DNA of 49,713 bases from a virus (lineage: Duplodnaviria; Heunggongvirae; Uroviricota; Caudoviricetes), in the IMG/VR virus record IMGVR_UViG_2529292882_000007; one strand, given 5' to 3'. A model generated the notes under the pieces. It was not told the origin of the DNA, made no database searches, and was given only the letters and a program-made list of their open reading frames with translations. This document shows, piece after piece, positions 6,169 through 49,713 of this stretch. How positions within the stretch are numbered: position 1 is the stretch's first letter; every line of letters starts with the position of its first letter. A program made the position numbers and the translations under genes.

Positions 6169-7257
6169 TTAATTTTTATCGCGGTTTTTGAATACTGACC
6201 CAATAACATTTTTTACTACTTCAGCTTGTTTATCGCCGTTGTTTTCTGGTTGATTAACATCAACTGAATCATTCACCTCATTTGCGTCTTCTTGCCGTTG
6301 ATTAAGAAAGTTTTTGTTACGCGCTCGCTCTGCATTCATAATTTCCAAAGCAAGTTCAGCCGCAGAAATTCCCGTTTTGAATTTTGCATTCTTAACCAGG
6401 TCGTCATGACCTGGAATTACGCTATTCTCGATTGTTTCAATGCGCTCGCGTTCTGATTTAACGCCCTCGTCTTTACCAGCATTAAAAACCTGATTGTATA
6501 ATTCTGGATGTTTATTTTTTAATTCATCAAGAGTCACAACATCGTCCTCATTTTGTTCATTTAATTCAGTAGATAATTCATTTTTATTTTGTGGCAACTT
6601 TGCGAGCGAATCAGGTAATTTTGAAAACCTTGATGCTTCAAAAGTTATTCCATTGAGCGAAAGCATCCCTTCCTTTATAGAAGCGGATAAGCGCATTGGT
6701 TTTTCAACTTCGTCAGCAAATCCAAGCTCTACAGCCTCTTCTGCATTTAGCCATGTTTCCTGATCCATTAGTTCAATTAATTTATCCTCAGAAAGCCCTG
6801 TTTTCTCCTTATATGCAGATAAAATACTATCTCGTATCTTATCCATCATCTCAGCAATATCACGTAGTTCATCCGCATCACCAGCAGCAAATGTCCACGG
6901 ATTATGGATCATCATCATAGCATTAGATGGGATAACAACTTTATCACCTGCCATTGCAATAATGGTTGCAGCCGATGCAGCAATACCATCAATATAAACA
7001 GTAATATTAGCCTTATGACGTTTTAATGAAGAAAGAATAGCTTGAGCAGTAAAAACAGAACCACCATAACTATTAATTTTTACGTTGATAGCATTTGATG
7101 ATATATCCTTTAATTTATTAACTATGTCAGAAGAAGAAACCTCATCAAATTCGCCAATATATCCGTAGATTAAAAGTTCAGCCGGAGAGTCATCTTCACC
7201 CGTGCTATTTTTTATTTCCCACCAATTAGGCATCATCTGTCTCCATATTTTGTTCAT
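6169..7257 (-). CDS. Prohead protease with C-terminal scaffold region (ClpP/S49 family, lambda gpC-like)
   Basis: Motif YGGSVFTAQAI...GIAASAATIIAMAGDKVVIP typical of ClpP/S49 serine protease core; acidic/coiled C-terminal half. Confidence 0.7.
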   Translation of the reverse strand: MNKIWRQMMPNWWEIKNSTGEDDSPAELLIYGYIGEFDEVSSSDIVNKLKDISSNAINVKINSYGGSVFTAQAILSSLKRHKANITVYIDGIAASAATIIAMAGDKVVIPSNAMMMIHNPWTFAAGDADELRDIAEMMDKIRDSILSAYKEKTGLSEDKLIELMDQETWLNAEEAVELGFADEVEKPMRLSASIKEGMLSLNGITFEASRFSKLPDSLAKLPQNKNELSTELNEQNEDDVVTLDELKNKHPELYNQVFNAGKDEGVKSERERIETIENSVIPGHDDLVKNAKFKTGISAAELALEIMNAERARNKNFLNQRQEDANEVNDSVDVNQPENNGDKQAEVVKNVIGSVFKNRDKN

Positions 7258-17124: not shown

Positions 17125-17390
17125 TCATCATCTCCTGCCGCACATACAACCTCACAAAAAACATCAGCGGAATGTTTCTCCTTGAACGAATGACGCTCAA
17201 AACCGCACTCAATATCAGGCGCAAAAACATCCACCACATACGGTCTTTCAGAATGTTTGTTTTCCCAACGATAAGCCGTAGTGACGTTGAAATGTTTTAA
17301 CGCTTCACGGAACTCAACGCTGCCCGTCAGGTTTTTTGAGGTCAGGTATTGCAGGAGGTTTTTTACTACTTCACGGTCTTGTACTTTCAT
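17121..17390 (-). CDS. Hypothetical protein, first gene after repeated promoter/leader cassette copy 1
   Basis: ATG at 17390 preceded by GGAGATAACCCG leader shared with copy 3. Confidence 0.5.
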   Translation of the reverse strand: MKVQDREVVKNLLQYLTSKNLTGSVEFREALKHFNVTTAYRWENKHSERPYVVDVFAPDIECGFERHSFKEKHSADVFCEVVCAAGDDE

Positions 17391-17508
17391 CGGGTTATCT
17401 CCGGTTTAACCAGGGCGGGTATCGCTCGGTTTCGGGTATAACCTTAGGAAATTTTTTCCCACCCGTAAAGCACTTTTTATATAAATCTATAATTATATAA
17501 TTCTATGA
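17387..17508 (-). promoter_or_regulatory. Repeated promoter/5' leader cassette, copy 1
   Basis: About 96 percent identical to 35121..35242; contains TATATAATTATATA-type AT palindrome and identical RBS. Confidence 0.6.
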
Positions 17509-18474: not shown

Positions 18475-18643
18475 ATATTTGATCTGTTTGTCTGGTGTGG
18501 CGCCGCGCACGAAAATCCCAGCCAATAAATTCAGGATTTTTGGGCGCGGCGGCATATCAGACAAACATGGTTGATGCTTGCGCTCATGAGAAAAGCGCAT
18601 AGAATGTTGTAACTATATATTTATATAATTATAGAAATATATA

Positions 18644-23510: not shown

Positions 23511-23788
23511 GCCACAGCCCCTCTCAACGGCTTAACTTTGGCTAATAAGGTGTTAAACAACATGGAGTTAGGATTCATGCCAAATGGCAATTCCGGTTTA
23601 GCGGAGTAGTACAGGCAACCATTTATTTTCCTGGTTGTTATCTGTCCTTCGGCAACCATGCTTCTCAGTCTGCAACGCATAGAGTTCTGCGACACACCAA
23701 TGTGCTCCGCGATTACGTCCACTTTTGAACATGGGTGATCGGTCAGGAAATTAATCACATCTTGGGGGTTAATAATTTTGCGTTTCAT
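23507..23788 (-). CDS. Winged-HTH DNA-binding protein
   Basis: Start ATG 23788 with AAGGA SD; HTH-like region VIAEHIGVSQNSMRCRL. Confidence 0.4.
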   Translation of the reverse strand: MKRKIINPQDVINFLTDHPCSKVDVIAEHIGVSQNSMRCRLRSMVAEGQITTRKINGCLYYSAKPELPFGMNPNSMLFNTLLAKVKPLRGAVA

Positions 23789-23865
23789 TGTCGAGACGTC
23801 CTTATACATTTATATAAATATATAATTCTATATACGGCGGGAGACATCCCGCCGTAGGCTTACTG

Positions 23866-24933
23866 TCAGGCTTTTAATAGCGATTCTTTCAGATATCGGG
23901 CATCAGCCAGGGCGTTTGGAGTAATCTTGCGAACCCATGCATTACGAGTTGGACTCCACTTAAAGGCGCGTGATTTAAGCAGCGAACGAATGTTTGCCTC
24001 TGGTTTGCCAGGGAAATAAAACAGGATGCGGTTATCCTCTGGATCTATCTCCATAGAAAAGCCGTCGTATTCTTCGCGCTGTGATCCTGTTACAGACTTG
24101 ACCGATTCAAGCTCTTTAATACGGCTCTGTAGTCGTTTGATTTCGGCGTTATTGTTACTCAGTGAGTATGAAGGAAAGCCAATGTGCCCACAGAAATCTC
24201 CGGCGAGTAACTCTTTGGCTTCGCTTTCAGTAAACTCAAGGTCAATTAATGCGGAAAGCTGCTGTAATTGGTCTTTTTTGTATTTGCGAATAGCCTTATT
24301 TGCGGCCTTCATTTTGATGTGTGACTTCATGCAGCCTTGCAGCTTACGAAGCAACTTAAATAGCGCATCAGGATCATCAGACGAAACTCCATTACGGCCG
24401 ACACCTGCGGCTTTGCTTTCGTAGTACGATGCTCTGCTTTCACACTCAACAAACGATTTTCTGAATAACGCATCAGCTTTAGACAAACGGCGGCGATGGC
24501 CTTTCGCGCTATAATGGTCAACTAAAATCGGCTGGCCTAACGGGATCACATCCAACAGTTCATGCGCTCGCTTATGCGCCACCGCACCTTCTTTTCTGGC
24601 TTTTTCTGCACGAGCAATATATCGGGCAAGACGCGCGTTCTGGCGTTCCTGATAGGTATTTACGTAATCATCTCCGCGCTGCTGCTGTTCAAGCCATGCT
24701 TTGCGCAGCTTTTCTGTTACGTCTACCAACTCCGCAGGGATACAACCTGTTTGGGATTCATAAGAGTGACCATCCTCATAAAGACGTCCATCGTCTTCAA
24801 CAAAGAAAAAGGTGTCGTGCTCATCGCTTTTGACCATACGGCCATTAACATGACGTAATCTATAGCCAGTATCAGTGCTTAACAGGCTGTCAGGGTTGTT
24901 GATCCAGTCAGAAATAATTACTTGTTTATTCAT
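23866..24933 (-). CDS. Hypothetical protein (DUF3560-like by recollection), first gene after cassette copy 2
   Basis: Start ATG 24933 directly after shared leader; ORF-track start at 25083 runs through the leader. Confidence 0.45.
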   Translation of the reverse strand: MNKQVIISDWINNPDSLLSTDTGYRLRHVNGRMVKSDEHDTFFFVEDDGRLYEDGHSYESQTGCIPAELVDVTEKLRKAWLEQQQRGDDYVNTYQERQNARLARYIARAEKARKEGAVAHKRAHELLDVIPLGQPILVDHYSAKGHRRRLSKADALFRKSFVECESRASYYESKAAGVGRNGVSSDDPDALFKLLRKLQGCMKSHIKMKAANKAIRKYKKDQLQQLSALIDLEFTESEAKELLAGDFCGHIGFPSYSLSNNNAEIKRLQSRIKELESVKSVTGSQREEYDGFSMEIDPEDNRILFYFPGKPEANIRSLLKSRAFKWSPTRNAWVRKITPNALADARYLKESLLKA

Positions 24934-24939
24934 CAGATT

Positions 24940-25041
24940 TCTCCGGTTTAACCAGGGCGGGTATCGCTCGGTTTCGGGTATAACCTTAGGAAATTTTTTC
25001 CCACCTGTAAAGCACTTTTTATATAAATCTATAATTATATA
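24940..25041 (-). promoter_or_regulatory. Repeated promoter/5' leader cassette, copy 2 (immediately downstream of Q-like gene)
   Basis: Shares about 100 bp with copies 1 and 3. Confidence 0.6.
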
Positions 25042-25103
25042 TTTATAGATTTTCCGATGTTCCCGGTGCCTACAAATCACCAAAACAGCTCAAAATGACA
25101 CTT

Positions 25104-27472: not shown

Positions 27473-27590
27473 ACCACGATATGTGGTATTAAAACCACAT
27501 ATCGTGAGTTTTTCAATGGGCGAAACAAAAAATAACCTTCTATTTGTGGTCCACCTCTCGTCTTACCATGTGAAAACCACTAAATGTGGT
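27473..27590. promoter_or_regulatory. Operator cluster: ACCAC-N5-GTGGT palindromes O1 27473..27487, O2 27494..27508 (imperfect), O3 27576..27590
   Basis: Three 15-bp inverted repeats in the divergent intergenic region. Confidence 0.6.
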
Positions 27591-27627: not shown

Positions 27628-28284
27628 ATGAAAAGCAACGACGAGAACATCAAGAAAGAAATAGGTCTGCGCATTCAGACTCTACGGAAACAATCCGGCA
27701 TGACTGCCGGAGATCTCCAGCAAGTCACTGGAATAGGCTTAAGCACCTTGCAGAACTATGAGGCCGGATTAAGACAACCATCTATACCTGCCATCAAGAA
27801 AATCGCGCACGCCCTGAAAGCATCAGCGCCTTATATCGCGTGCTTAACAGATAACCCGTTCCCACCCCAGAATACTAACGCTCCTGTTATTCCTGGGCTT
27901 GTAGCTATAAAAAATGACATAGCATCGCACGCCGGAGAAAAGCCAGTGCTGGCGATAGAACAGGAGATTCTACGAAGCAAGAACATCAACCCATCGTCTC
28001 TGTCAGTTCTCCAGAGCAACGATGAGTTAATGTCACCAACAATATCCCCTGGCTCCCAAGTCCTGATTAATACAGACGATACAGAGATTCATGAGGGGAT
28101 CTATGCCCTTGAAGACAGAAATGGCCTGGTTGTTTTGAGGCACTGTAGAGTCATACCGGGTGACAATGCTGTTATGCTGTCAACCGAAAGGGATGCTGAA
28201 ATGAACACTAAGCATCTGAATAACGAGGAATTTAAGCGTTATAAAGTTCTTGGCCGCGTAGTTAGTGTTGTCAACTGGTTATGA
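27628..28284 (+). CDS. CI-like repressor (HTH-XRE plus S24/LexA-like C-terminal domain)
   Basis: N-terminal HTH; C-terminal region with MSP-type Ser motif. Confidence 0.65.
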   Translation: MKSNDENIKKEIGLRIQTLRKQSGMTAGDLQQVTGIGLSTLQNYEAGLRQPSIPAIKKIAHALKASAPYIACLTDNPFPPQNTNAPVIPGLVAIKNDIASHAGEKPVLAIEQEILRSKNINPSSLSVLQSNDELMSPTISPGSQVLINTDDTEIHEGIYALEDRNGLVVLRHCRVIPGDNAVMLSTERDAEMNTKHLNNEEFKRYKVLGRVVSVVNWL

Positions 28285-28326: not shown

Positions 28327-28341
28327 ACCACATTTTGTGGT
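28327..28341. promoter_or_regulatory. Operator O4 ACCACattttGTGGT
   Basis: Perfect 15-bp match to operator consensus upstream of ORF 28377. Confidence 0.5.
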
Positions 28342-28751: not shown

Positions 28752-28775
28752 CTGCAAGCGGGCTAACGCCCGCTT

Positions 28776-28878
28776 ATATGATTATAGATTTATATAATTA
28801 TATAAAACGCTTTTCATCCGCCAAAAAGTTGGTTATGCTTACCTCGTTCTATAAATATAGATTTATAGAATTATATAA
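28776..28878. repeat. AT-rich palindromic repeat cluster upstream of parA (candidate centromere/operator)
   Basis: Two blocks containing TATATAATTATATA-like motifs. Confidence 0.45.
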
Positions 28879-28886
28879 CCAAACAC

Positions 28887-29555
28887 ATGGAGTCTCGACA
28901 AATGACTATCTCTGTAGGTATTTTCAACGGAAAAGGCGGCGTAACCAAATCAACAATTGCCCGTGCTTTAGCAGTTGCTTATGCAAAGGCCGGCTGGAAT
29001 GTATGCCTGATCGATATGGATGTGCTTAACGGAACGGTAACGCGTTGGGTACAACGCAGAATGGCCAACAATATCGAACCAGCAATCGCGGCACAGCCGT
29101 GCGGCACACCATCACAAGTCCAGAAAATCATCGAATCAGAAGTATACGACCTGGTTATCGTAGATGGCGGTGCCTACGCATCTGAATCAGTACCGAAGCT
29201 CTCTGAATTTCTGGATATGGTTATTTTGCCAACCAGATTCTCTACCGATGACCTGGAAACCACCGTTAACACAGCTCACGGCATCGTTAAAAAGGGTGTA
29301 CCAATCAAGAAAATTTGCATGGTGTTTTCCGGCGCGGCTGAAAACGAAGCTGACTATATTGAAGCCCAAGAGTACCTGGCTAATACGCCATACTTTGTTG
29401 TCGATAAGTACATTCCCCACAAGCCAGCTCTGAGCAAAGCTCAGGATAAGGGCTTAAGCCTCATTGAGTGCTCATACGTTGCGCCACGCAAAAAGGCAGA
29501 CGACGTTATTCAGGGGATTATCAACCAGCTTGAGGCTCTGACTACTGCCGCGTAA
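28887..29555 (+). CDS. ParA-family partition ATPase (small type Ib, ParF-like); probable start at 28902
   Basis: Deviant Walker A FNGKGGVTKST. Confidence 0.8.
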   Translation: MESRQMTISVGIFNGKGGVTKSTIARALAVAYAKAGWNVCLIDMDVLNGTVTRWVQRRMANNIEPAIAAQPCGTPSQVQKIIESEVYDLVIVDGGAYASESVPKLSEFLDMVILPTRFSTDDLETTVNTAHGIVKKGVPIKKICMVFSGAAENEADYIEAQEYLANTPYFVVDKYIPHKPALSKAQDKGLSLIECSYVAPRKKADDVIQGIINQLEALTTAA

Positions 29556-29598
29556 TATATAATTATAGTTTTATAGATTTATATAAGAGGGGATACAC

Positions 29599-29847
29599 AT
29601 GGCCGCACCATCAAAACCACCAAAGAAGAACAGCAAAGGCGTACCGCCATCGATCGAACAACCGCAGGTTTTCGACCCGACTGAAACGCCAACCAGAACC
29701 AAATCAGGTGGGGCACAAATGGCGTTTAACGTCGACCCTGAATTTAAACGCGAGTACAAAACGTTCGCCAGCTCAATGGATATGTCATTGAAAGAAGTGC
29801 TGACAAAATCTTTTGAGTTACTCAAGGCTCAATACAACCAGAAGTAA
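29599..29847 (+). CDS. Putative ParG-like ribbon-helix-helix centromere-binding protein
   Basis: 82 aa, basic/Pro-rich N-terminal tail, RHH-like C-terminal region; immediately downstream of parA. Confidence 0.45.
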   Translation: MAAPSKPPKKNSKGVPPSIEQPQVFDPTETPTRTKSGGAQMAFNVDPEFKREYKTFASSMDMSLKEVLTKSFELLKAQYNQK

Positions 29848-29876: not shown

Positions 29877-30059
29877 TTGGCCGTCGCGACACAACAAGGG
29901 GAATTTGTTATGTCCGAACAACAATATACACGGTTACTGAAAACTCGTCTAACCGACCTCAAACGGCTGCAAGCTGGTTGCTTATTTGCCCTGCTATCTA
30001 CCAGGCCAGAATGGGTACGTGAAGCAGTTCTGAAAGGCTTAATGCGCTCCAGCGTTTAA
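29877..30059 (+). CDS. Hypothetical small protein
   Basis: ORF track; probable start at internal Met. Confidence 0.3.
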   Translation: MAVATQQGEFVMSEQQYTRLLKTRLTDLKRLQAGCLFALLSTRPEWVREAVLKGLMRSSV

Positions 30060-31388: not shown

Positions 31389-31479
31389 CTATCAAACAAA
31401 TTTGATTGGTCAAATCATGCGCTTAATGAGCAGAAAATTCCGTTTTTCAAACCCACGCTATGTGGTTGTCTCTGTTAAA

Positions 31480-31720
31480 ATCCCGCCGTATTGACATGAA
31501 TGCGCCATTGGTGGACACTTTCCGAGCCGTAGCAAAATCTACGGTCGGGATTAGCCTCCTGAATAACACGATGGCGCATACCGCGTTAGCGGTTTTTTTT
31601 ATGCGTAGAGCACTGTTACGCCCAAATTATGGTGGGTCGTACAGGGGCGGAGAAATCCGCGCCGGTTCGTCATTGTGTCCGGTAAGGCTAACCCTGTACG
31701 GCTCACCACCATTTGATTAG
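31480..31720 (+). ncRNA. Candidate structured regulatory RNA/leader upstream of the small-ORF/antirepressor operon
   Basis: TTGACA at 31491..31496; hairpin plus T8 at 31580..31600; long-range stem 31631..31646 with 31692..31710. Confidence 0.3.
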
Positions 31721-34743: not shown

Positions 34744-35124
34744 TTACTTAACGAGGAATAAAAATGGTTTATTGTTCGGCGGTGTAATCGGGGCTGGCTC
34801 GCTTTTGCTCATGCGATCAGTGTACCAGGCCAGCTCCTTGTCAAAGTAAGCCTGATTAAAATAGGCCATGAATGTAGTTTCAAATCCATAACGACCGCTA
34901 ATACGCAGCATCTGATTGCCGTTCTCTGTTTCCAGATATACCTGGGCACGTTCCTGATTCTCCTTCAGCCAGGTTAAAGCCTCATCGCACGAGGACACAC
35001 GATACTCATCATCGTAGCCGTCATCGATGCGGCTTGAAGAAGAACGGCAAATCACGCCAACAGAACCAGCCAGGATAGTTTGAATTTTAAGGAAAGCGTT
35101 TTTGCGGATTTTAATCATGCTCAT
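34744..35124 (-). CDS. Hypothetical protein, first gene after cassette copy 3
   Basis: ATG 35124 after GGAGATAACCCG leader. Confidence 0.5.
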   Translation of the reverse strand: MSMIKIRKNAFLKIQTILAGSVGVICRSSSSRIDDGYDDEYRVSSCDEALTWLKENQERAQVYLETENGNQMLRISGRYGFETTFMAYFNQAYFDKELAWYTDRMSKSEPAPITPPNNKPFLFLVK

Positions 35125-35242
35125 CGGGTTATCTCCGGTTTAACCAGGGCGGGTATCGCTCGGTTTCGGGTATAACCATAGGAATTTTTTTCCCACCTGT
35201 AAAGCACTTTTTATATAAATATATAATTATATAATTCTATGA
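35121..35242 (-). promoter_or_regulatory. Repeated promoter/5' leader cassette, copy 3
   Basis: About 96 percent identical to 17387..17508. Confidence 0.6.
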
Positions 35243-35287: not shown

Positions 35288-35587
35288 TCAGATGTTAAAC
35301 GCTATTCGTTTTCCTGTGGGAAGCTCAACATCCAAGCTTAATTTGCCTCCCATAGCTTCAACGTAACGCTTTAATGTCGCCAGCTTTAAATCATTTCCGC
35401 GCTGCTCCAGCTTTGTTACTGCTGGCTGGCTTATACCCATCGCCTCAGCAACCTGTTTTTGTGATAACTGGAGTTCTTCACGCATCATCTGCAAGCCGAC
35501 CTCAAGAATCATCTCATCTGCCATTTCTTTAATTCGCGCCTGGCTTTCAGGTGAACGGCTGGCAATCACCTCATCTAATGTTCTCAT
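35288..35587 (-). CDS. HTH-XRE antitoxin (HigA-like)
   Basis: HTH-like LQLSQKQVAEAMGISQPAVTKLE; downstream of and overlapping toxin gene. Confidence 0.55.
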   Translation of the reverse strand: MRTLDEVIASRSPESQARIKEMADEMILEVGLQMMREELQLSQKQVAEAMGISQPAVTKLEQRGNDLKLATLKRYVEAMGGKLSLDVELPTGKRIAFNI

Positions 35588-35940
35588 TACTTGCTCTCCA
35601 GTGTGTTCAGATGTGCTGCAAACTCATCCTCAGCTATACGCACCAGTTTTTCATAAAACCGTTTATCGTTACTTTTGTCTCCTGCACAAAGAACGATGGC
35701 CCGGCGAATCGGATCGAACGCATAAAAGGCTCTTATCGGACGGCCAGAAAACTGAACGCGAAGCTCTTTCATATTTTTGTACCGAGAACCTTTTACGGTA
35801 TCGGCATATGGCCTGGGTAACTCAGGTCCGTAAACCTGTAGCTTTTTCAAATCAGCCAAAACCTTTTCCTGAAGAGCGTCTTCTTGCTCATTTAGCCAGT
35901 CGTCAAATCGCTGGCTAAAAAGTACCGTCCACATGCTCAA
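35587..35940 (-). CDS. RelE/HigB-like toxin (Gp49-like addiction module killer)
   Basis: 117 aa; gene order toxin then antitoxin with 1-nt overlap. Confidence 0.5.
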   Translation of the reverse strand: MSMWTVLFSQRFDDWLNEQEDALQEKVLADLKKLQVYGPELPRPYADTVKGSRYKNMKELRVQFSGRPIRAFYAFDPIRRAIVLCAGDKSNDKRFYEKLVRIAEDEFAAHLNTLESK

Positions 35941-37396: not shown

Positions 37397-38245
37397 TTAA
37401 TGTTGGAGTGATTTCCAGGTCTTTCTTAGCCTGTTATAACGCTGCTCAACGAGGGAGCGTAAATATGCAAGGTCAGCACCAGGATACATGCCATCAGCAA
37501 ATTCCTGGCTAACCTCTCTAGTGATTTGATGACGAAGTTCGGCCTCTCCCTTTTCCTGAACAAGACGCGCAGCTCTCTCCGCTGCTTTCTGTTTTGCCTT
37601 TATCTCTCTGGCCGTCTTCCTCTGACGCCATACATTCTCCATCTGCTCCTGAATAACAATACGCTTATAATCAGCCTCCGTTATCGCTTTTTTAAGCCGT
37701 TCGCTATTCTTCGCATTGAAGTAATTAAGTTTCTGGCTAACCGCACGTCTCCATGCTTGTTCAGTAATACCAACTGTTTCCAGCAGTTGATCACGAATCT
37801 CGATTTTCGCTGGCCAATACTGTTTATTCACCCGATCCCAGCGACGTTCATAATCAATAAAACCTAACTCTTTCAGTTGCGACAACGCCCTTGTACAGCG
37901 CGTTATAGACTTGTTCCCAGCTTCGGATACGGTAGACAGGCCGCAAAAATCAGCCAACGCCTCAGCACTGGCCAGAACCCGCTTAGAAATGATGTTTACA
38001 TGGTGCAAAATCGCAGCAATCACAGCATTAATCGCCCGACGACGATGCTCGTTTATCCGGCGTTTCCGCTCTGACGGTTGATTAACGTAGAACGCAACCT
38101 CACACGTAAGATCACGACCATTAATGCGCTGTAAAGCATCAGATAACACCAGCGGCAGCTTGTGCGTATGGTGCTTTGGAGGCTGGAACTCCGGCGACAA
38201 ATTACAAACGTAAGCTGAACGTAGAGACGGCATTGGTCTATCCAT
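37397..38245 (-). CDS. repA: Replication initiator RepA, IncFII RepA1-like (ORF track extends to alternative start 38389)
   Basis: Segment RRRAINAVIA...GNKSITRCTRALSQLKELGFIDYE resembles IncFII RepA1 RRRAIDALLQ...GKLSITRATRALTFLSELGLITYQ. Confidence 0.7.
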   Translation of the reverse strand: MDRPMPSLRSAYVCNLSPEFQPPKHHTHKLPLVLSDALQRINGRDLTCEVAFYVNQPSERKRRINEHRRRAINAVIAAILHHVNIISKRVLASAEALADFCGLSTVSEAGNKSITRCTRALSQLKELGFIDYERRWDRVNKQYWPAKIEIRDQLLETVGITEQAWRRAVSQKLNYFNAKNSERLKKAITEADYKRIVIQEQMENVWRQRKTAREIKAKQKAAERAARLVQEKGEAELRHQITREVSQEFADGMYPGADLAYLRSLVEQRYNRLRKTWKSLQH

Positions 38246-38289
38246 ATGTTCGCTCTTGCGTCCACGGAAAACCAACGTATAATGGGAGT

Positions 38290-38372
38290 TGTCGAGGCGC
38301 CCATGGTTAGTTGTTGGTTTTCCTTTCCGTGGATGTCGCAAGAAGCCCGCAGATTTATCTGCGGGCTTTTTG
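38290..38372 (+). ncRNA. Predicted CopA-like antisense RNA complementary to the repA leader
   Basis: Promoter -35 TTGCGT 38256..38261, 16-nt spacer, -10 TATAAT 38278..38283; terminator hairpin 38343..38371 with T-run. Confidence 0.5.
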
Positions 38373-38415
38373 TTTCCATATCTGGTCACTTTTCAACCAG
38401 ACACCCACAATCATA

Positions 38416-38430
38416 ACCACGTTACGTGGT
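38416..38430. promoter_or_regulatory. ACCACgttacGTGGT operator-like palindrome in repA upstream region
   Basis: Matches operator consensus seen at the CI/Cro intergenic region. Confidence 0.4.
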
Positions 38431-40996: not shown

Positions 40997-43249
40997 TTAT
41001 ACCTGTGCGACGTTATACCATGTGCCATTGATGTATTTCTGAATTGGTCTGAAAATAGCTTCATCATCGCCATCAACTTCACCAATAATTCTTAATCCGG
41101 TAAGTGCGTGTCCGGCAATCTCATAACGCCCGCCGCGTGACATTAATTGAACAACTCGCGTACCAAGCCGGACATCTCCCACATAGCGAGAGTCAAAATT
41201 GCTGTAATTGGATGGGATAACCTGTCCGTGCACATTCAGACCGTGCCCCATAGTAACAAGACCAGTATTAAGCGCGATATAGAATGGACGAAGACCATTC
41301 CAGCTACCGTACTGGTCACCACTGGCAGTAAATAACAGATACAAGCTGCCACCATCCTGTCGCAGAATTGCACCATAATTTCCTGCAATCATCCTTAAAG
41401 CATTCTGTGATGTAGTTATCAGTTCCCCAGTCATGGTATCGCCAGCACGATTCCAGTCGCGACGCCAGCCAGGCGCGTAGGTGTCACCATGATTAATATA
41501 AGTAAATTGCGCTTTTGCTGTACCGTTCGTTGCAGTTGTTGGAGTAGTGACGCGAATAGTCATTGCGCTCTTGGTGCCCATCACTTCAACCACCGAGCCA
41601 GCAAGTTGAATATTCCCGCAACCTGTATCTGTAATAATTTTATTATTGGCGTAAGACCATGAACCTTTGCACATCCAGTATGGGTGATTAAATGCCCCCT
41701 GAGACTCCAGCCACGCAATAAACTGTGCTGTCGTCCAGTTGCTGCTATCTCCTCCAATATTGATACTTCCGCTGGCCGCTTTCGCTGCACCAATATTTTT
41801 TGTGAAAGTATCTTTCCCTGGAATATCCGCACCGTTCTGGTTTTTCTGCAATGCACCAGAAGCCTTGTTTATCGTTTCCTGCAAACCGAGGTATCCGATA
41901 ACGGCAGCAACGGTCGATTTCGCAAGAATATCCCGCCCGACTTTTGTCAGGGTTGCCAGGCTGGCGACATCATTCCCCGTAAAATACGGAAACTTGTCTG
42001 CCGCAGTAGCAAGCCCGGCCAGCGCCGTCAGGGTGGCATCTTTCGGTTGCTTACCCGCAAGCGCGTTAGTCATGGTGGTCGCAAAATTCGGGTCGTTTCC
42101 CAGCGCCGCCGCTAACTCGTTCAGCGTATTCAGTGCGTCAGGCGACGAGTCCACGAGGGCAGCGATCGCAGCCATAACATAAGCCGTGCTTGCGATCTGA
42201 GTATTGTTAGTACCTTTTGGCGCAGTTGGTGTTGTTGGTGTTCCGGTCAGCGCCGGACTGTTCAGGGGCGCTTTCTTGTTCGTTTCATCCATTACCACCT
42301 TTACAGCTTTCGATGTCGCGGCCAGTGTTTCAGACGTGCTGTTGGTGGCACTACTGAGCTGAGTTATTCCCCTTACAGTCAGTGAAGCTACAGGCACATT
42401 TGTTATCTGCGCCCACGAATGCGTGTGATTGGACGGAGCCTTTCCGGCCGCAAGATCATACGCTGCCTTAACAGCCTTTGGTGTTGCTGCCAGCGTTTCA
42501 GACGTGCTGTTGGTGGCACTACTGAGCTGAACAATCCCTTTTCGCGCTGTGGTAGCGTCCTGTGCGGTGTATTTAGCGTTAGCCAGGTCATATGCTGCCT
42601 TAACAGCCTTAGGCGTCGCAGCAAGCGTTTCAGACGTGCTATTGGTGGCGCTGCTAAGTTGAACAAAGCCTTTTGAGGTTAAAGTTGCATCAGGATGATT
42701 ACGTGATTGCTCATGTTTCACAATGGCTTGCTTAAGCCGCTTTGCTGAAACAGCAAGGGAATCATCTGTACCTGCATCAATTTCTTGTTCATTAGCAAAT
42801 CTTGCCACCCCAACAACAGTTTCGGTCGCGGGAGGATTAATAAACTCAATATCACCAAATGTAATATTTTTAGTATCAAGAGTTTTAATTGCTATATCAC
42901 TTGATATTAAAGCGATAGTAGATGATGCTTTATTTATTATTGCTTGTTCTTGTGAGTATACAGCAAACAACGTACCCTTATTCGTATACAATCCTATTGT
43001 ATGGACAACATACTCATCTTTACTATCATCCTTCGCTGTCACATGAATTGTATCAGGGGAAACAACTTTGCCACCTATTGTGGTAAGTCGTTTTATTTCG
43101 TTTGTTATATTTGTTTGTGAAGTTGACGTGACATAATATCTACTACCTAAACCAACAGAAACAATCTCAACTTTATTTGTTCCTGTTTTGTTGGCATTAA
43201 CCAGCTCCTGACGCCCGGCGTCAGTCATCGTAAATAATAATTTACTCAC
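40997..43249 (-). CDS. Tail fibre protein
   Basis: 750 aa; three tandem QLSSATNSTSETLAATPKAVKAAYDLA repeats; crossover site inside gene at 41876..41901. Confidence 0.8.
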   Translation of the reverse strand: MSKLLFTMTDAGRQELVNANKTGTNKVEIVSVGLGSRYYVTSTSQTNITNEIKRLTTIGGKVVSPDTIHVTAKDDSKDEYVVHTIGLYTNKGTLFAVYSQEQAIINKASSTIALISSDIAIKTLDTKNITFGDIEFINPPATETVVGVARFANEQEIDAGTDDSLAVSAKRLKQAIVKHEQSRNHPDATLTSKGFVQLSSATNSTSETLAATPKAVKAAYDLANAKYTAQDATTARKGIVQLSSATNSTSETLAATPKAVKAAYDLAAGKAPSNHTHSWAQITNVPVASLTVRGITQLSSATNSTSETLAATSKAVKVVMDETNKKAPLNSPALTGTPTTPTAPKGTNNTQIASTAYVMAAIAALVDSSPDALNTLNELAAALGNDPNFATTMTNALAGKQPKDATLTALAGLATAADKFPYFTGNDVASLATLTKVGRDILAKSTVAAVIGYLGLQETINKASGALQKNQNGADIPGKDTFTKNIGAAKAASGSINIGGDSSNWTTAQFIAWLESQGAFNHPYWMCKGSWSYANNKIITDTGCGNIQLAGSVVEVMGTKSAMTIRVTTPTTATNGTAKAQFTYINHGDTYAPGWRRDWNRAGDTMTGELITTSQNALRMIAGNYGAILRQDGGSLYLLFTASGDQYGSWNGLRPFYIALNTGLVTMGHGLNVHGQVIPSNYSNFDSRYVGDVRLGTRVVQLMSRGGRYEIAGHALTGLRIIGEVDGDDEAIFRPIQKYINGTWYNVAQV
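41876..41901. repeat. gix/hix-like crossover site (distal, inside tail fibre gene)
   Basis: TTCCTGCAAACCGAGGTATCCGATAA encoding fibre residues ...GYLGLQE... Confidence 0.7.
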
Positions 43250-47380: not shown

Positions 47381-47588
47381 TATTGCGTCTCCACGGAGGC
47401 AAATTGTTTACTGATATTGGCATAACCGGAGCATCAGGAACTTTAAGAATAATTCCCGCAGAAAAAAGCACCGTAAAGCGGTGCTCAGTATTAGCATCAA
47501 TAAGAAGATAAGACAGGTACTCATTACCATACAACTTTAACGCGATACTATCCCATGAGTCCCCTTGAACCGTTCTATAATCATCCAA
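47370..47588 (-). CDS. LysM-domain tail protein (P2 gpX-like)
   Basis: 72 aa; LysM-like VQGDSWDSIALKLYG. Confidence 0.5.
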   Translation of the reverse strand: MDDYRTVQGDSWDSIALKLYGNEYLSYLLIDANTEHRFTVLFSAGIILKVPDAPVMPISVNNLPPWRRNSVT

Positions 47589-49713
47589 AACTTAATCTCC
47601 GTTGTTGGAACATATGAGCACTCAATTTCTTCTCAAAATCAGAATATCCCGCATCTAATGCTCTTTTAGCTGCCGCCTCAGTTTCCTTTGGTGAACCAGC
47701 CGGAAGATTGATTACAGGTGAATAGGTTATTCCACCAGTCACAGCATTAACGTTCTGGCGAGGTCCAGAAGTCCCGGCGGCAGATATCCCGTGAGGTGAT
47801 AAATTTGATTGCCCGAACTTGGTTGCTATTGCATTCTGTAAGCTGTTATTCCTGCTAACGCCTGATGCCAGAGTAGTCATTATTGCACCACCTGACTTTG
47901 TTAGCTGTGAGAATGGACCTTTTTTCGCGTCAGAGAACGGTAAATACTCACGTACAGAAGAAAAAACGCCTTTCACTTCATTAATTAAAGCATTTGCTTT
48001 TGATTTTATCCCAGTGATTAACGTCTCAATTATTTTTGCGCCTGACTCACTCCAGTTTATTCCAGACAAATAAGCCGTTACAGATTGGAATGCTCTTATA
48101 AAGAGTCCAACTGGTGAAAAACGCATAAAAACAGATACCAGTGTATCTATGATTTTCTTTCCTGTTTCGCTCCAGTTAATACCAGAAAGGTAATTTGTTG
48201 TAAGTTTAAATGCTTTAATTAAGAACGGAAGCGGAGACATCCATTTAAAAGCACTAATTAATGTACTGTAAATTCTTACTCCTGCCGAACTCCAGTTTAT
48301 GTTGGAAAGATAATCCCATGCTTTACCAAACATAGATATAATCCATCCATTGAGATCAAAGTTTAAGATAAAGTTTTTTATAGCTTCAAACGATTTAACT
48401 GTATATTCCTTAACAGAAGGCCAAACTCTGACAGCATAATCTCTGATCTTATCCCAGTTCTGATAGAGCAATATTCCTGCGGCAACCAGCGCAGATATAG
48501 CCATCTGAATCCACCCGAAGGGTGTTAGCTTTGTCGCTACAGATAAAGCCAGCATAGCTACCCTACACGCTATAACCACACTTTTCATGGTTAGAAACGC
48601 ACCTGCCGCCATCACAATCTGAGACACAAAATTGGGGTTGTTAGCTACAAATTCACTAATTTTTGTAATCAGCGGAACCAAAACACTAAGCGCGGCATTC
48701 AAAGCAGGTTGCAAGGCCTGACCAAAACTTAATGATGCATTGCTAGCCTGAATACGTAATTGTTTCAATCGCTCCGCATTGTCTTTCGTTATGTTGGCAA
48801 AATCGCGGTCAATAACAGCACTTCCAGCACCAAGAGATGTTGCTTTGATTCTCTGGTATTCCTTCCAGTTTTGAATCATCGGACGAACAAAGTTCTGAAC
48901 CTGCATATCGCCAAATAGCTCACCAAGTAACTTCTGATCTCCGTTCTTAGTCATTTTCATGACAGAATGCATTGCAGCTTCGAATGGATTCTTCCCTTTT
49001 TTCTGCGCTGTTGTGACAATTTTATATAAATCTACACCGAAATTTTTCTTTGCTTTTTTTAGTGTTTCAGGGGAAAGTATTTTCGCCAAAAAGTTGTTCA
49101 TATTATTAGCAGCCTCATCCGAAGTTGCAGCACCTTTGCGAGCTATCTGCAAAGCTGCCCCCATCGTCGCGGCGGCTTCTTTACCTCCCATTTTTAATGC
49201 CTGGAACTGGGCACCAAGCACAGGAAGATTTTTGGCCATATCTTTAAATTCAAAATTTCCCTCTTTCCCTGCCTGAACCAGAATCCCCATTGCAGACTTC
49301 ATTTGAGATGGATCAATCTTCAATGAGTCACTTAATGTAAATGATGCTTTCGAGACATCGAGGATATCAGAGCCAGTAGCTGTAGCTGTTCGCCCAATAG
49401 TTAGTAGATTCGCCTGAGCCTCTTTATAATCCTGCCCAGCAGCGACGAGAAAACCCTGAGCAGCCTGAATATCAGATGCAAACTGGTTGGTAGCCGTTCC
49501 GGTAACAAGCATCGCCTGCCCCATCGCCTGAACTTCTTCCGGCTTCATATCTGCCGTAAGACCAATCATTTTGTTTTCACGATTGAAATTTGCTGCATTG
49601 TTAGCAGCAGCAAATGCACCAGCCGCTACAGCACCAGTTTGTAATCCTGACCTTACAAGTTGACTCTTTGCCTCACCAAGATGCTCTCGCTTCAATTCAC
49701 GCTGCCTTTCCAA
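47581..49713 (-). CDS. Tail tape measure protein, C-terminal part (N-terminal part at 1..755)
   Basis: 710-aa ORF running off the window end in frame with 1..755; repeated hydrophobic W-containing motifs. Confidence 0.75.
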   Translation of the reverse strand: MERQRELKREHLGEAKSQLVRSGLQTGAVAAGAFAAANNAANFNRENKMIGLTADMKPEEVQAMGQAMLVTGTATNQFASDIQAAQGFLVAAGQDYKEAQANLLTIGRTATATGSDILDVSKASFTLSDSLKIDPSQMKSAMGILVQAGKEGNFEFKDMAKNLPVLGAQFQALKMGGKEAAATMGAALQIARKGAATSDEAANNMNNFLAKILSPETLKKAKKNFGVDLYKIVTTAQKKGKNPFEAAMHSVMKMTKNGDQKLLGELFGDMQVQNFVRPMIQNWKEYQRIKATSLGAGSAVIDRDFANITKDNAERLKQLRIQASNASLSFGQALQPALNAALSVLVPLITKISEFVANNPNFVSQIVMAAGAFLTMKSVVIACRVAMLALSVATKLTPFGWIQMAISALVAAGILLYQNWDKIRDYAVRVWPSVKEYTVKSFEAIKNFILNFDLNGWIISMFGKAWDYLSNINWSSAGVRIYSTLISAFKWMSPLPFLIKAFKLTTNYLSGINWSETGKKIIDTLVSVFMRFSPVGLFIRAFQSVTAYLSGINWSESGAKIIETLITGIKSKANALINEVKGVFSSVREYLPFSDAKKGPFSQLTKSGGAIMTTLASGVSRNNSLQNAIATKFGQSNLSPHGISAAGTSGPRQNVNAVTGGITYSPVINLPAGSPKETEAAAKRALDAGYSDFEKKLSAHMFQQRRLSFG

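Follow-up and report, generated by a model that had tools for sequence, protein, structure and literature searches.

The DNA analysed here, the IMG/VR virus record IMGVR_UViG_2529292882_000007 (Caudoviricetes; 49,713 nt, the whole of which is called the window below), carries eight short arrays of an 8-bp TATA-based unit, each located before the start of a gene. Three of them lie at a partition (par) locus that encodes a small ParA ATPase and a ParG-like protein of 82 amino acids (aa) with a predicted ribbon-helix-helix (RHH) fold. From the comparisons described below we consider it probable that all eight arrays are binding sites of this protein, and the best reading of the sequences is that it would serve as a centromere-binding protein and a global regulator at the same time, similar to omega of plasmid pSM19035. 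A preliminary description of the window had reported an AT-rich palindrome twice upstream of parA, once between parA and the ParG-like gene and at five other promoters, always just upstream of a gene start, and had interpreted it as a possible centromere or operator of the ParG-like protein, with a promoter element common to these genes as the other option. A repeated element is indeed present at all eight places, including the three at the par locus (arrays 5, 6 and 7 in Table 1), and every array precedes an ATG on the strand of its gene. The element is, however, not the palindrome: the 14-bp sequence TATATAATTATATA occurs exactly only at 28791 and 35220, and what is repeated is an array of 8-bp units.

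Scanning the window for TATATAATTATATA with up to 3 mismatches yielded 29 matches against 3.4 ± 1.75 expected, a number reached in 0 of 100 shuffles. Most of these loose matches (23 of 29) fall into eight clusters in which 14-mers overlap at an offset of exactly 8 bp, three per cluster but two at 29556. An array normally comprises four units in 30 bp, and all eight arrays of the window are made up of four. Read toward the downstream gene, the 32 units have the consensus TATA[T/G]A[A/T][A/T] (TATAKAWW); counted in a frame that begins one base before the TATA core, the eight positions show T24/A8, T30/C2, A28/C3/G1, T32, A32, T22/G10, A30/G1/T1 and A22/T9/G1. The majority of units are of the symmetric type TATATA, while ten carry TATAGA in forward and three TCTATA in inverted orientation. 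The array loci are also the sole stretches of the window with at least 26 A/T in 28 bp, for which the mean under a third-order Markov model is 0.84; as a random model with 63% AT, an over-generous null, predicts 4.8 such stretches, AT richness is weak evidence. In place of this statistic a test for phased TATA cores was adopted, and four TATA cores at 8-bp phase (at most 1 mismatch) were found at exactly eight loci and at none in 200 dinucleotide-preserving shuffles. Local AT content, which the preliminary description had named, together with a lack of protein binding, as what would refute its reading, is not a sufficient explanation given this strong phased signal. The eight arrays stand before seven genes and end 13, 13, 14, 24, 86, 87, 87 and 97 nt before the next ATG on the gene's strand. 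Because arrays 3, 5 and 8 directly follow terminator-like hairpins, the arrays tend to mark the starts of transcription units.

Table 1. Arrays, cassettes, genes and candidate operators in the window (ORF, open reading frame; CI-like, repressor with helix-turn-helix (HTH) and S24 peptidase domains).
Feature	Position	Strand	Description
Array 1	17478..17507	-	overlaps stop codon of MT-A70 methyltransferase gene; upstream of cassette -35 TTTACG; 87 nt to ATG (17390) of 89-aa gene of unknown function
Array 2	18614..18643	-	13 nt to first in-frame ATG (18600) of 99-aa gene of unknown function
Array 3	23803..23832	-	right after G+C-rich hairpin; 14 nt to ATG (23788) of 93-aa winged-helix/MarR-like gene
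Array 4	25020..25049	-	upstream of cassette -35 (25011-25006) and -10 (24988-24983); 86 nt to ATG (24933) of DUF3560 gene
Array 5 (par array 1)	28775..28804	+	TATATGAT TATAGATT TATATAAT TATATA; 6 nt upstream of parA -35; preceded by hairpin GCGGGCTAACGCCCGC of the upstream gene
Putative sigma-70 parA promoter	28811..28839	+	TTTTCA-17 bp-TATGCT, between arrays 5 and 6; read from the sequence
Array 6 (par array 2)	28848..28877	+	TCTATAAA TATAGATT TATAGAAT TATATA; 8 nt past -10, over expected transcription start; 24 nt before parA ATG
parA	28902..29555	+	217-aa small Walker-type (type Ib-like) partition ATPase
Array 7 (par array 3)	29556..29585	+	TATATAAT TATAGTTT TATAGATT TATATA; abuts parA stop codon; 13 nt before ATG of ParG-like gene
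ParG-like gene	29599..29847	+	82 aa; Lys/Pro-rich tail 1-39, predicted disordered; predicted C-terminal RHH
60-aa ORF after parG	29877-30059		conserved; syntenic in all phage-plasmid relatives
Array 8	35212..35241	-	after terminator-like hairpin 35273-35251; -35 35203-35198, -10 35180-35175; 87 nt to ATG (35124) of 126-aa gene of unknown function
122-nt cassette (D3), copy 1	17387..17508	-	holds array 1
122-nt cassette, copy 2	24929..25050	-	89% identical to copy 1; holds array 4
122-nt cassette, copy 3	35121..35242	-	97% identical to copy 1; holds array 8
CI-like repressor gene	27628-28284		HTH + S24 peptidase
RepA-like gene	37397-38389
ACCAC-N5-GTGGT, exact	27473-27487, 27576-27590		divergent region between CI-like gene and leftward early genes
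ACCAC-N5-GTGGT, exact	28327-28341		after CI-like gene
ACCAC-N5-GTGGT, exact	38416-38430		just upstream of RepA-like gene
ACCAC-N5-GTGGT, 1 mismatch	31452-31466		before 86-aa gene 31460-31720

At the par locus, array 5 and array 6 enclose the putative promoter of parA, a GGAG lies between array 6 and the parA ATG, and the ParG-like gene starts 44 nt past the parA stop codon with array 7 in between. Judged by this layout, the two arrays that bracket the par promoter have the appearance of a centromere/operator of the type Ib kind. The translation start of parA itself, (G)TCTCGACAA(A)TG at 28893-28904, was the same in all lineages examined (including L002, L017, L019 and L020 of the relatives introduced below), and it also occurs at the array-adjacent 93-aa gene (23786-23795, minus strand) and, in L017, at the gene that follows the array at 6614. 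The shorter string CTCGACAA(A)TG common to the starts of parA and of this 93-aa gene is not significant alone, there being only 3 CTCGACAA in the window.

The comparison with relatives, which were collected via ParA and ParG and carry L numbers here, is the central result of the analysis. The order array, -35/-10, array, parA, (array), parG is kept in the Serratia plasmid L002, the IMG/VR loci L017-L022, the Salinicola locus L023 and the pCRY-like plasmids L006 and L030-L035, and the putative promoter sandwiched between two arrays was likewise seen in L002, L017, L019, L020, L023 and L006. The par layout is thus conserved from E. coli to Salinicola although the sequence of the unit changes, and the class of the unit tracks the predicted beta-strand of the ParG-like protein (QM[AS]FNV, QLLL[RQ]L or [PL]MNFN[MV]). 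In the window, L001, L003, L015 and L016 the strand QM[A/S]FNV goes along with the unit TATAGA / TATATA; class B (L017, L018, L021 and L022) combines QLLLRL with GATATA / TATATC, and L020 has QLLLQL and the unit TATATAAA. Class D, consisting of L002 and L019, pairs [P/L]MNFN[M/V] with TTTAAAT[A/C], and in L023, which lies on a contig of 62% G+C, LVNFRW is found with CTATAAAG. Hexamer counts gave the same division: TATAGA occurs in the arrays of the first class and a few times in the pCRY-like plasmids, GATATA is all but absent outside the second and third classes (at most 1 per genome), and TTTAAA and CTTTAA are found almost only in the fourth. In every lineage the lineage-specific unit recurs at 3-7 other gene starts, which means that all sites of a genome changed together. 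Judging from these sequences, all sites of each genome have co-evolved with a single specificity determinant encoded by the element.

ParA has the size and motifs of a type Ib ATPase, with a deviant Walker A motif (NGKGGVTKST, containing GKGGVTKST) and no N-terminal HTH domain. It matches CbiA/ParA/MipZ in Pfam and scores 78.6 bits with the NCBIfam model ParA_partition, under its cut-off of 180; a single-sequence search of the PDB (E 1e-5) returned no partition ATPase including ParF and had the arsenical pump ATPase ArsA as its sole match, while a profile built from ParA and three relatives gave a full-length match to ParF (4DZZ, E 7.8e-7). The 82-aa protein has no match in Pfam or NCBIfam, nor in the PDB when searched as a single sequence, and belongs to PHROG 6024, annotated as 'unknown function'. 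A first homologue search with it returned only near-identical proteins. Profiles of 10 or 40 diverse homologues matched SvtR (2KEL, E 1e-4) and ParG (1P94, E 3-4e-4, with the whole RHH domain aligned), and more weakly CopG-family proteins, Mnt and, for the 10-sequence profile only, ORF56; omega was absent among these PDB profile matches, and no similarity to omega was detectable. In the AlphaFold2 model (40-sequence alignment) the N-terminal half is disordered and helices are predicted at 47-59 and 64-80, with pLDDT 86-91 over residues 41-80 and a beta-strand of about QMAFNV. Foldseek searches of the PDB with this model returned RHH proteins for nearly all top matches (StnY, CdbA, CopG, AmrZ, ParD, Arc), with target TM up to 0.87, rmsd 1-2 Å over about 42 residues and probability up to 0.98; the E values were weak (0.4-1), as expected for a small domain. 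By profile and model, the protein is predicted to be an RHH protein with a disordered tail that is distantly related to ParG. It does not belong to the ParG family proper (Pfam ParG, the TP228 clade), to which it is connected only at profile level through 1P94, and is a distant RHH relative, that is, a new family on a known design. Of the 96 clusters of this family none has a Pfam domain, nearly all are named 'hypothetical' and none is named after partition. The tail residues K13, G14 and P17 are invariant or nearly so, and by the precedents of ParG and omega the conserved tail may contact ParA. The paper on pMET1/pCRY was considered as an account of the present family and set aside; it describes a true ParF/ParG locus.

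Outside the par locus, three of the five remaining arrays are part of a 122-nt cassette, copies of which (89-97% identity) head three unrelated genes, i.e. the 89-aa gene, the DUF3560 gene and the 126-aa gene. The cassette has the order array, AAAAGTGC, -35 TTTAC[A/G], 17 bp, -10 TA[A/T]GGT, followed by a leader that reaches the ATG after about 45 nt. Its array is located immediately upstream of the -35, at roughly -40 to -75 as estimated from the hexamer positions. The 45-nt leader (…CCCGCCCTGGTTAAACCGGAG…) is conserved as well and may have a role of its own. Class B relatives duplicate their own version of the cassette (in L017 at 13195 and 13966), and dispersed class B arrays again lie just upstream of a -35. 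In total the cassette was found in 65 plasmids and the ParG-like protein in 63, which among the hits listed are largely one set of phage-plasmids; outside this overlap, three conjugative plasmids hold short fragments, and the one of them that was inspected, p0083-27kb, is pCRY-like. This plasmid (L041, NZ_CP140467.1) carries at 2501-2547 a 47-bp piece of the cassette, comprising part of the array and the -35 region, which is 100% identical and is cut off by the IS26 flanking a cfr resistance gene. The finding suggests that regulatory cassettes are exchanged between phage-plasmids and conjugative plasmids of similar ParG specificity. Among the relatives, arrays abutting a start codon were also noted in the Serratia plasmid (L002, 27671-27714) ahead of a Lar gene for restriction alleviation and in a Salmonella plasmid (L003, 27954-27987) ahead of a DGQHR-domain gene, a hint that defence or anti-defence is among the roles of the regulon.

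If not the ParG-like protein, another protein could bind the arrays, be it a product of the element, for example that of the 60-aa ORF or the 93-aa MarR-like protein, or one of the nucleoid proteins of the host (H-NS, IHF or Fis, for instance). AT-rich DNA is the usual target of H-NS and IHF, and the 60-aa ORF is attractive for its synteny (Table 1). Its product is, however, 72-76% identical in class B and C genomes despite their different unit, and it is absent from L023 and from the pCRY-like plasmids, where arrays are present; most of the relatives with arrays lack the MarR-like, HTH190 and 124-aa proteins. As nucleoid proteins of the host show high conservation across Enterobacterales, they cannot explain the differences in unit between the elements of E. 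coli/Salmonella, Citrobacter/Enterobacter and Serratia. We regard this explanation, taken over all such proteins, as unlikely. The CI-like immunity repressor, encoded 0.5 kb before the par arrays, might be thought to use them as scattered operators, since dispersed repressor operators are known in the case of C1 of phage P1. Yet no array is present in the divergent control region between the CI-like gene and the early genes, where a different palindrome, ACCAC-N5-GTGGT, is found instead (8 matches in the window at up to 1 mismatch against 0.65 expected; five are given in Table 1), and an HTH dimer does not usually target tandem 8-bp units of mixed orientation. The palindrome probably serves the CI-like repressor, or another HTH repressor, as operator and would then link immunity to plasmid replication. 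In L003, L015 and L016 the array motif is unchanged and the ParG-like protein is 91-95% identical to that of the window (ParG and ParA together 91-96%), whereas the CI-like repressor reaches merely 62-65% and the upstream 124-aa protein 52-60%. The pCRY-like conjugative plasmids (pATCCBAA1673_02, L006; six genome contigs, L030-L035) are built on a type IV secretion system (T4SS)/MobC backbone, and the only genes they have in common with the window are parA (46%) and the RHH gene (36%), besides short partial matches to the antitoxin and RepA-like genes. They nevertheless show array, promoter, array, parA, array and parG with TATA-type 8-bp units; pATCCBAA1673_02 has three par arrays and further arrays before SprT-like, T4SS, nuclease and mobC genes, and it contains no CI gene, no 60-aa ORF and no gene for the 124-aa protein. 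A role of CI as the array-binding protein is thus extremely improbable. It is these conjugative plasmids, the relatives with unchanged motif and the distribution of the 60-aa ORF that point to the ParG-like protein.

The arrays could, on the other hand, require no dedicated protein at all and act on RNA polymerase as generic AT-rich enhancers of promoters, resembling UP elements or easily melted or curved DNA. Four arrays lie just upstream of a -35, in the position of the A/T-rich UP elements of sigma-70 promoters (about -40 to -60), and are followed by an AAAAAG-type sequence, and the arrays are the most AT-rich DNA of the genome. This position does not fit the other four, which lie 13-24 nt from the ATG or over the transcription start, where an UP element makes no sense. 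Strict 8-bp phasing and an invariant TATA core are not explained by AT richness either, nor is the genome-wide change of lineage-specific units, including the G/C-containing CTATAAAG in a host of 62% G+C. Since the units are phased and lineage-specific, a specific factor is favoured over UP elements, and we consider generic enhancers very unlikely. Two further candidates were rejected, namely iterons of RepA, as no array is near repA and the 8-bp units are located at the par locus, and promoters of a phage-specific RNA polymerase or sigma factor, as the same arrays occur in non-phage conjugative plasmids.

Recognition by the ParG-like protein has to be weighed against three observations that speak against it. 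Arrays can vary in their number of units, as par array 1 has three in L003, L015 and L016; reading of the sequence revealed no convincing promoter within or downstream of the ATG-abutting arrays at 18614, 23803 and 29556; and the covariation of unit and beta-strand spans lineages in which ParA and other early proteins diverge too, and is by itself not specific to ParG. Because other proteins also diverge between lineages, the assignment rests on the case of the conjugative plasmids and on the comparison with L003, L015 and L016. Of the two proposals of the preliminary description, a centromere or operator of the ParG-like RHH protein is the one favoured by the conserved layout, the concerted change of units, their tracking with the beta-strand and their transfer together with parA and parG. 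The shared promoter element holds for the three arrays within the triplicated promoter cassette; overall, the centromere/operator is preferred.

We infer from these data that the ParG-like protein would bind the arrays, in what stoichiometry and with which direction of regulation, and that arrays would act as centromeres; a possible mechanism would be as follows. One RHH dimer would read each 8-bp unit with its beta-ribbon, in either orientation, and three to five adjacent units would be coated cooperatively. The three par arrays would form the partition complex, i.e. the centromere, with the Lys/Pro-rich tail engaging the small Walker ParA. Binding at arrays 5 and 6 would autoregulate the par operon, because these arrays bracket the parA promoter, one upstream of the -35 and one over +1. 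The five other arrays would bring further transcription units under the control of the ParG-like protein, three of them by means of a portable cassette of array, promoter and leader. At the cassette, bound protein would block an UP-element-like input of the AT-rich DNA, so that repression appears most likely, while at the ATG-abutting arrays protein bound at the gene's 5' end would exert the regulation. Additional centromere capacity may come from the dispersed arrays.

More tentatively, the 82-aa protein could be a master regulator of the plasmid state across enterobacterial phage-plasmids and pCRY-like plasmids, with the arrays as dispersed centromeres and cassette operators and the unit classes TATAGA, GATATA, TTTAAA and CTATAAAG as insulated regulon and incompatibility groups; we consider this a possibility rather less likely than its opposite. 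If it were true, the cassette would place newly acquired genes, possibly for establishment or anti-defence, under the control of the partition protein. The analysis assigns a probable function to a family without recognition in Pfam or NCBIfam (PHROG 6024) and a probable centromere/operator to a widespread phage-plasmid. It further suggests that genes of the 'early' region of phage-plasmids are controlled by a partition protein and not by a CI-like repressor; the omega regulon would then have its counterpart in a Gram-negative setting. The classes of specificity that occur in nature, beta-strand versus 8-bp unit, constitute a ready data set for the rules of RHH recognition and allow predictions on incompatibility between co-resident phage-plasmids and pCRY-like plasmids. 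The principle of an RHH partition protein as regulator of multiple sites is already established; literature searches with phage names and motif strings found no description of this motif or regulon.

The window represents a complete circular genome of 49,618 bp, as its first and last 95 bases (1-95 and 49619-49713) are identical and form a 95-bp overlap. Yersinia phage vB_YpM_39 is 98% identical to it and contains the same eight arrays, and many non-mobilizable plasmids of 47-50 kb from E. coli, E. fergusonii, E. albertii and Klebsiella, among them many 48-kb E. coli plasmids, show about 96-97% identity to most of the 17-36 kb region. The window is a phage-plasmid, given its near-identity to both a phage and plasmids and the presence of structural genes (of the myovirus type according to the annotation of a relative), lysis genes, a CI-like repressor, a RepA-like gene, a toxin-antitoxin pair and parA. 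This phage-plasmid is known from dozens of plasmid records, mostly from E. coli (many of them clinical) with a few from Salmonella and Klebsiella, and from three Yersinia phage genomes. Plasmid pSLy3 was rejected as namesake of the group, being a member of the SSU5 supergroup of about 100 kb. The toxin-antitoxin pair (35288-35940, minus strand) is located directly upstream of array 8 and its terminator and is annotated as HigB2 toxin and hypothetical protein in L001 and as RelE/ParE-family toxin and HTH protein in L003. Repeats of another kind are found inside two ORFs, namely three 93-nt copies (42282-42674, spacing 168 and 132 nt) in a 750-aa ORF at 40997-43249 and three 45-nt copies with 120-bp spacing (48032-48316) in an ORF at 47581-49713 that runs past the end of the window. 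In both cases these are probably repeated protein domains of tail components.

Among known systems the closest functional analogue is omega/delta of the S. pyogenes plasmid pSM19035 (inc18). In this system parS consists of arrays of 7-10 heptads (7-bp repeats) that overlap the promoters of copS, delta and omega, and at least 4 contiguous repeats are needed for activation of ParA (PMC9499535). Both systems combine a small Walker ParA with an RHH protein that has a flexible N-terminal tail, a centromere-binding protein in the case of omega and a predicted RHH protein here, and in both contiguous short non-palindromic repeats in mixed orientation, uniform in unit within each system, are situated at the promoters of several operons, those of omega being operators and parS at once and those of the window all having four units. 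The units themselves differ, with an 8-bp TATA-based unit in the window and the 7-bp WATCACW of omega, and the proteins have no sequence similarity. Here the carrier is a Gram-negative phage-plasmid with eight sites, five of them before genes without known maintenance role and three of these in a duplicated cassette.

By sequence, the closest partition protein of known structure is ParG (profile E 3e-4) of the ParF/ParG/parH system of Salmonella plasmid TP228, and ParF is the protein matched over its full length by the ParA profile. The two loci share a type Ib arrangement, in which a small ParA precedes an RHH protein of some 80 aa that has a mobile tail, and an array of boxes upstream of parA. 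In TP228 the sites are confined to the par locus, whereas those of the window are dispersed. The TP228 site consists of short boxes of 4 bp interrupted by AT-rich spacers, and ParG coats this array cooperatively (PMC3130281). The differences are that the 82-aa protein has no Pfam ParG match, that ParA is not similar to ParF in a single-sequence search, and that the boxes read TATAKA here and ACTC there. A third group of systems, to which KorB and SopB belong, resembles the window in having partition sites scattered over the replicon, and KorB is also a global regulator. Such sites are known for KorB of RK2 (IncP) and for SopB of N15 (PMC5016525), the latter being a phage-plasmid as well. KorB and SopB are, however, large HTH ParB proteins of type Ia systems with palindromic sites, while the window combines a small RHH protein with arrays of tandem units.

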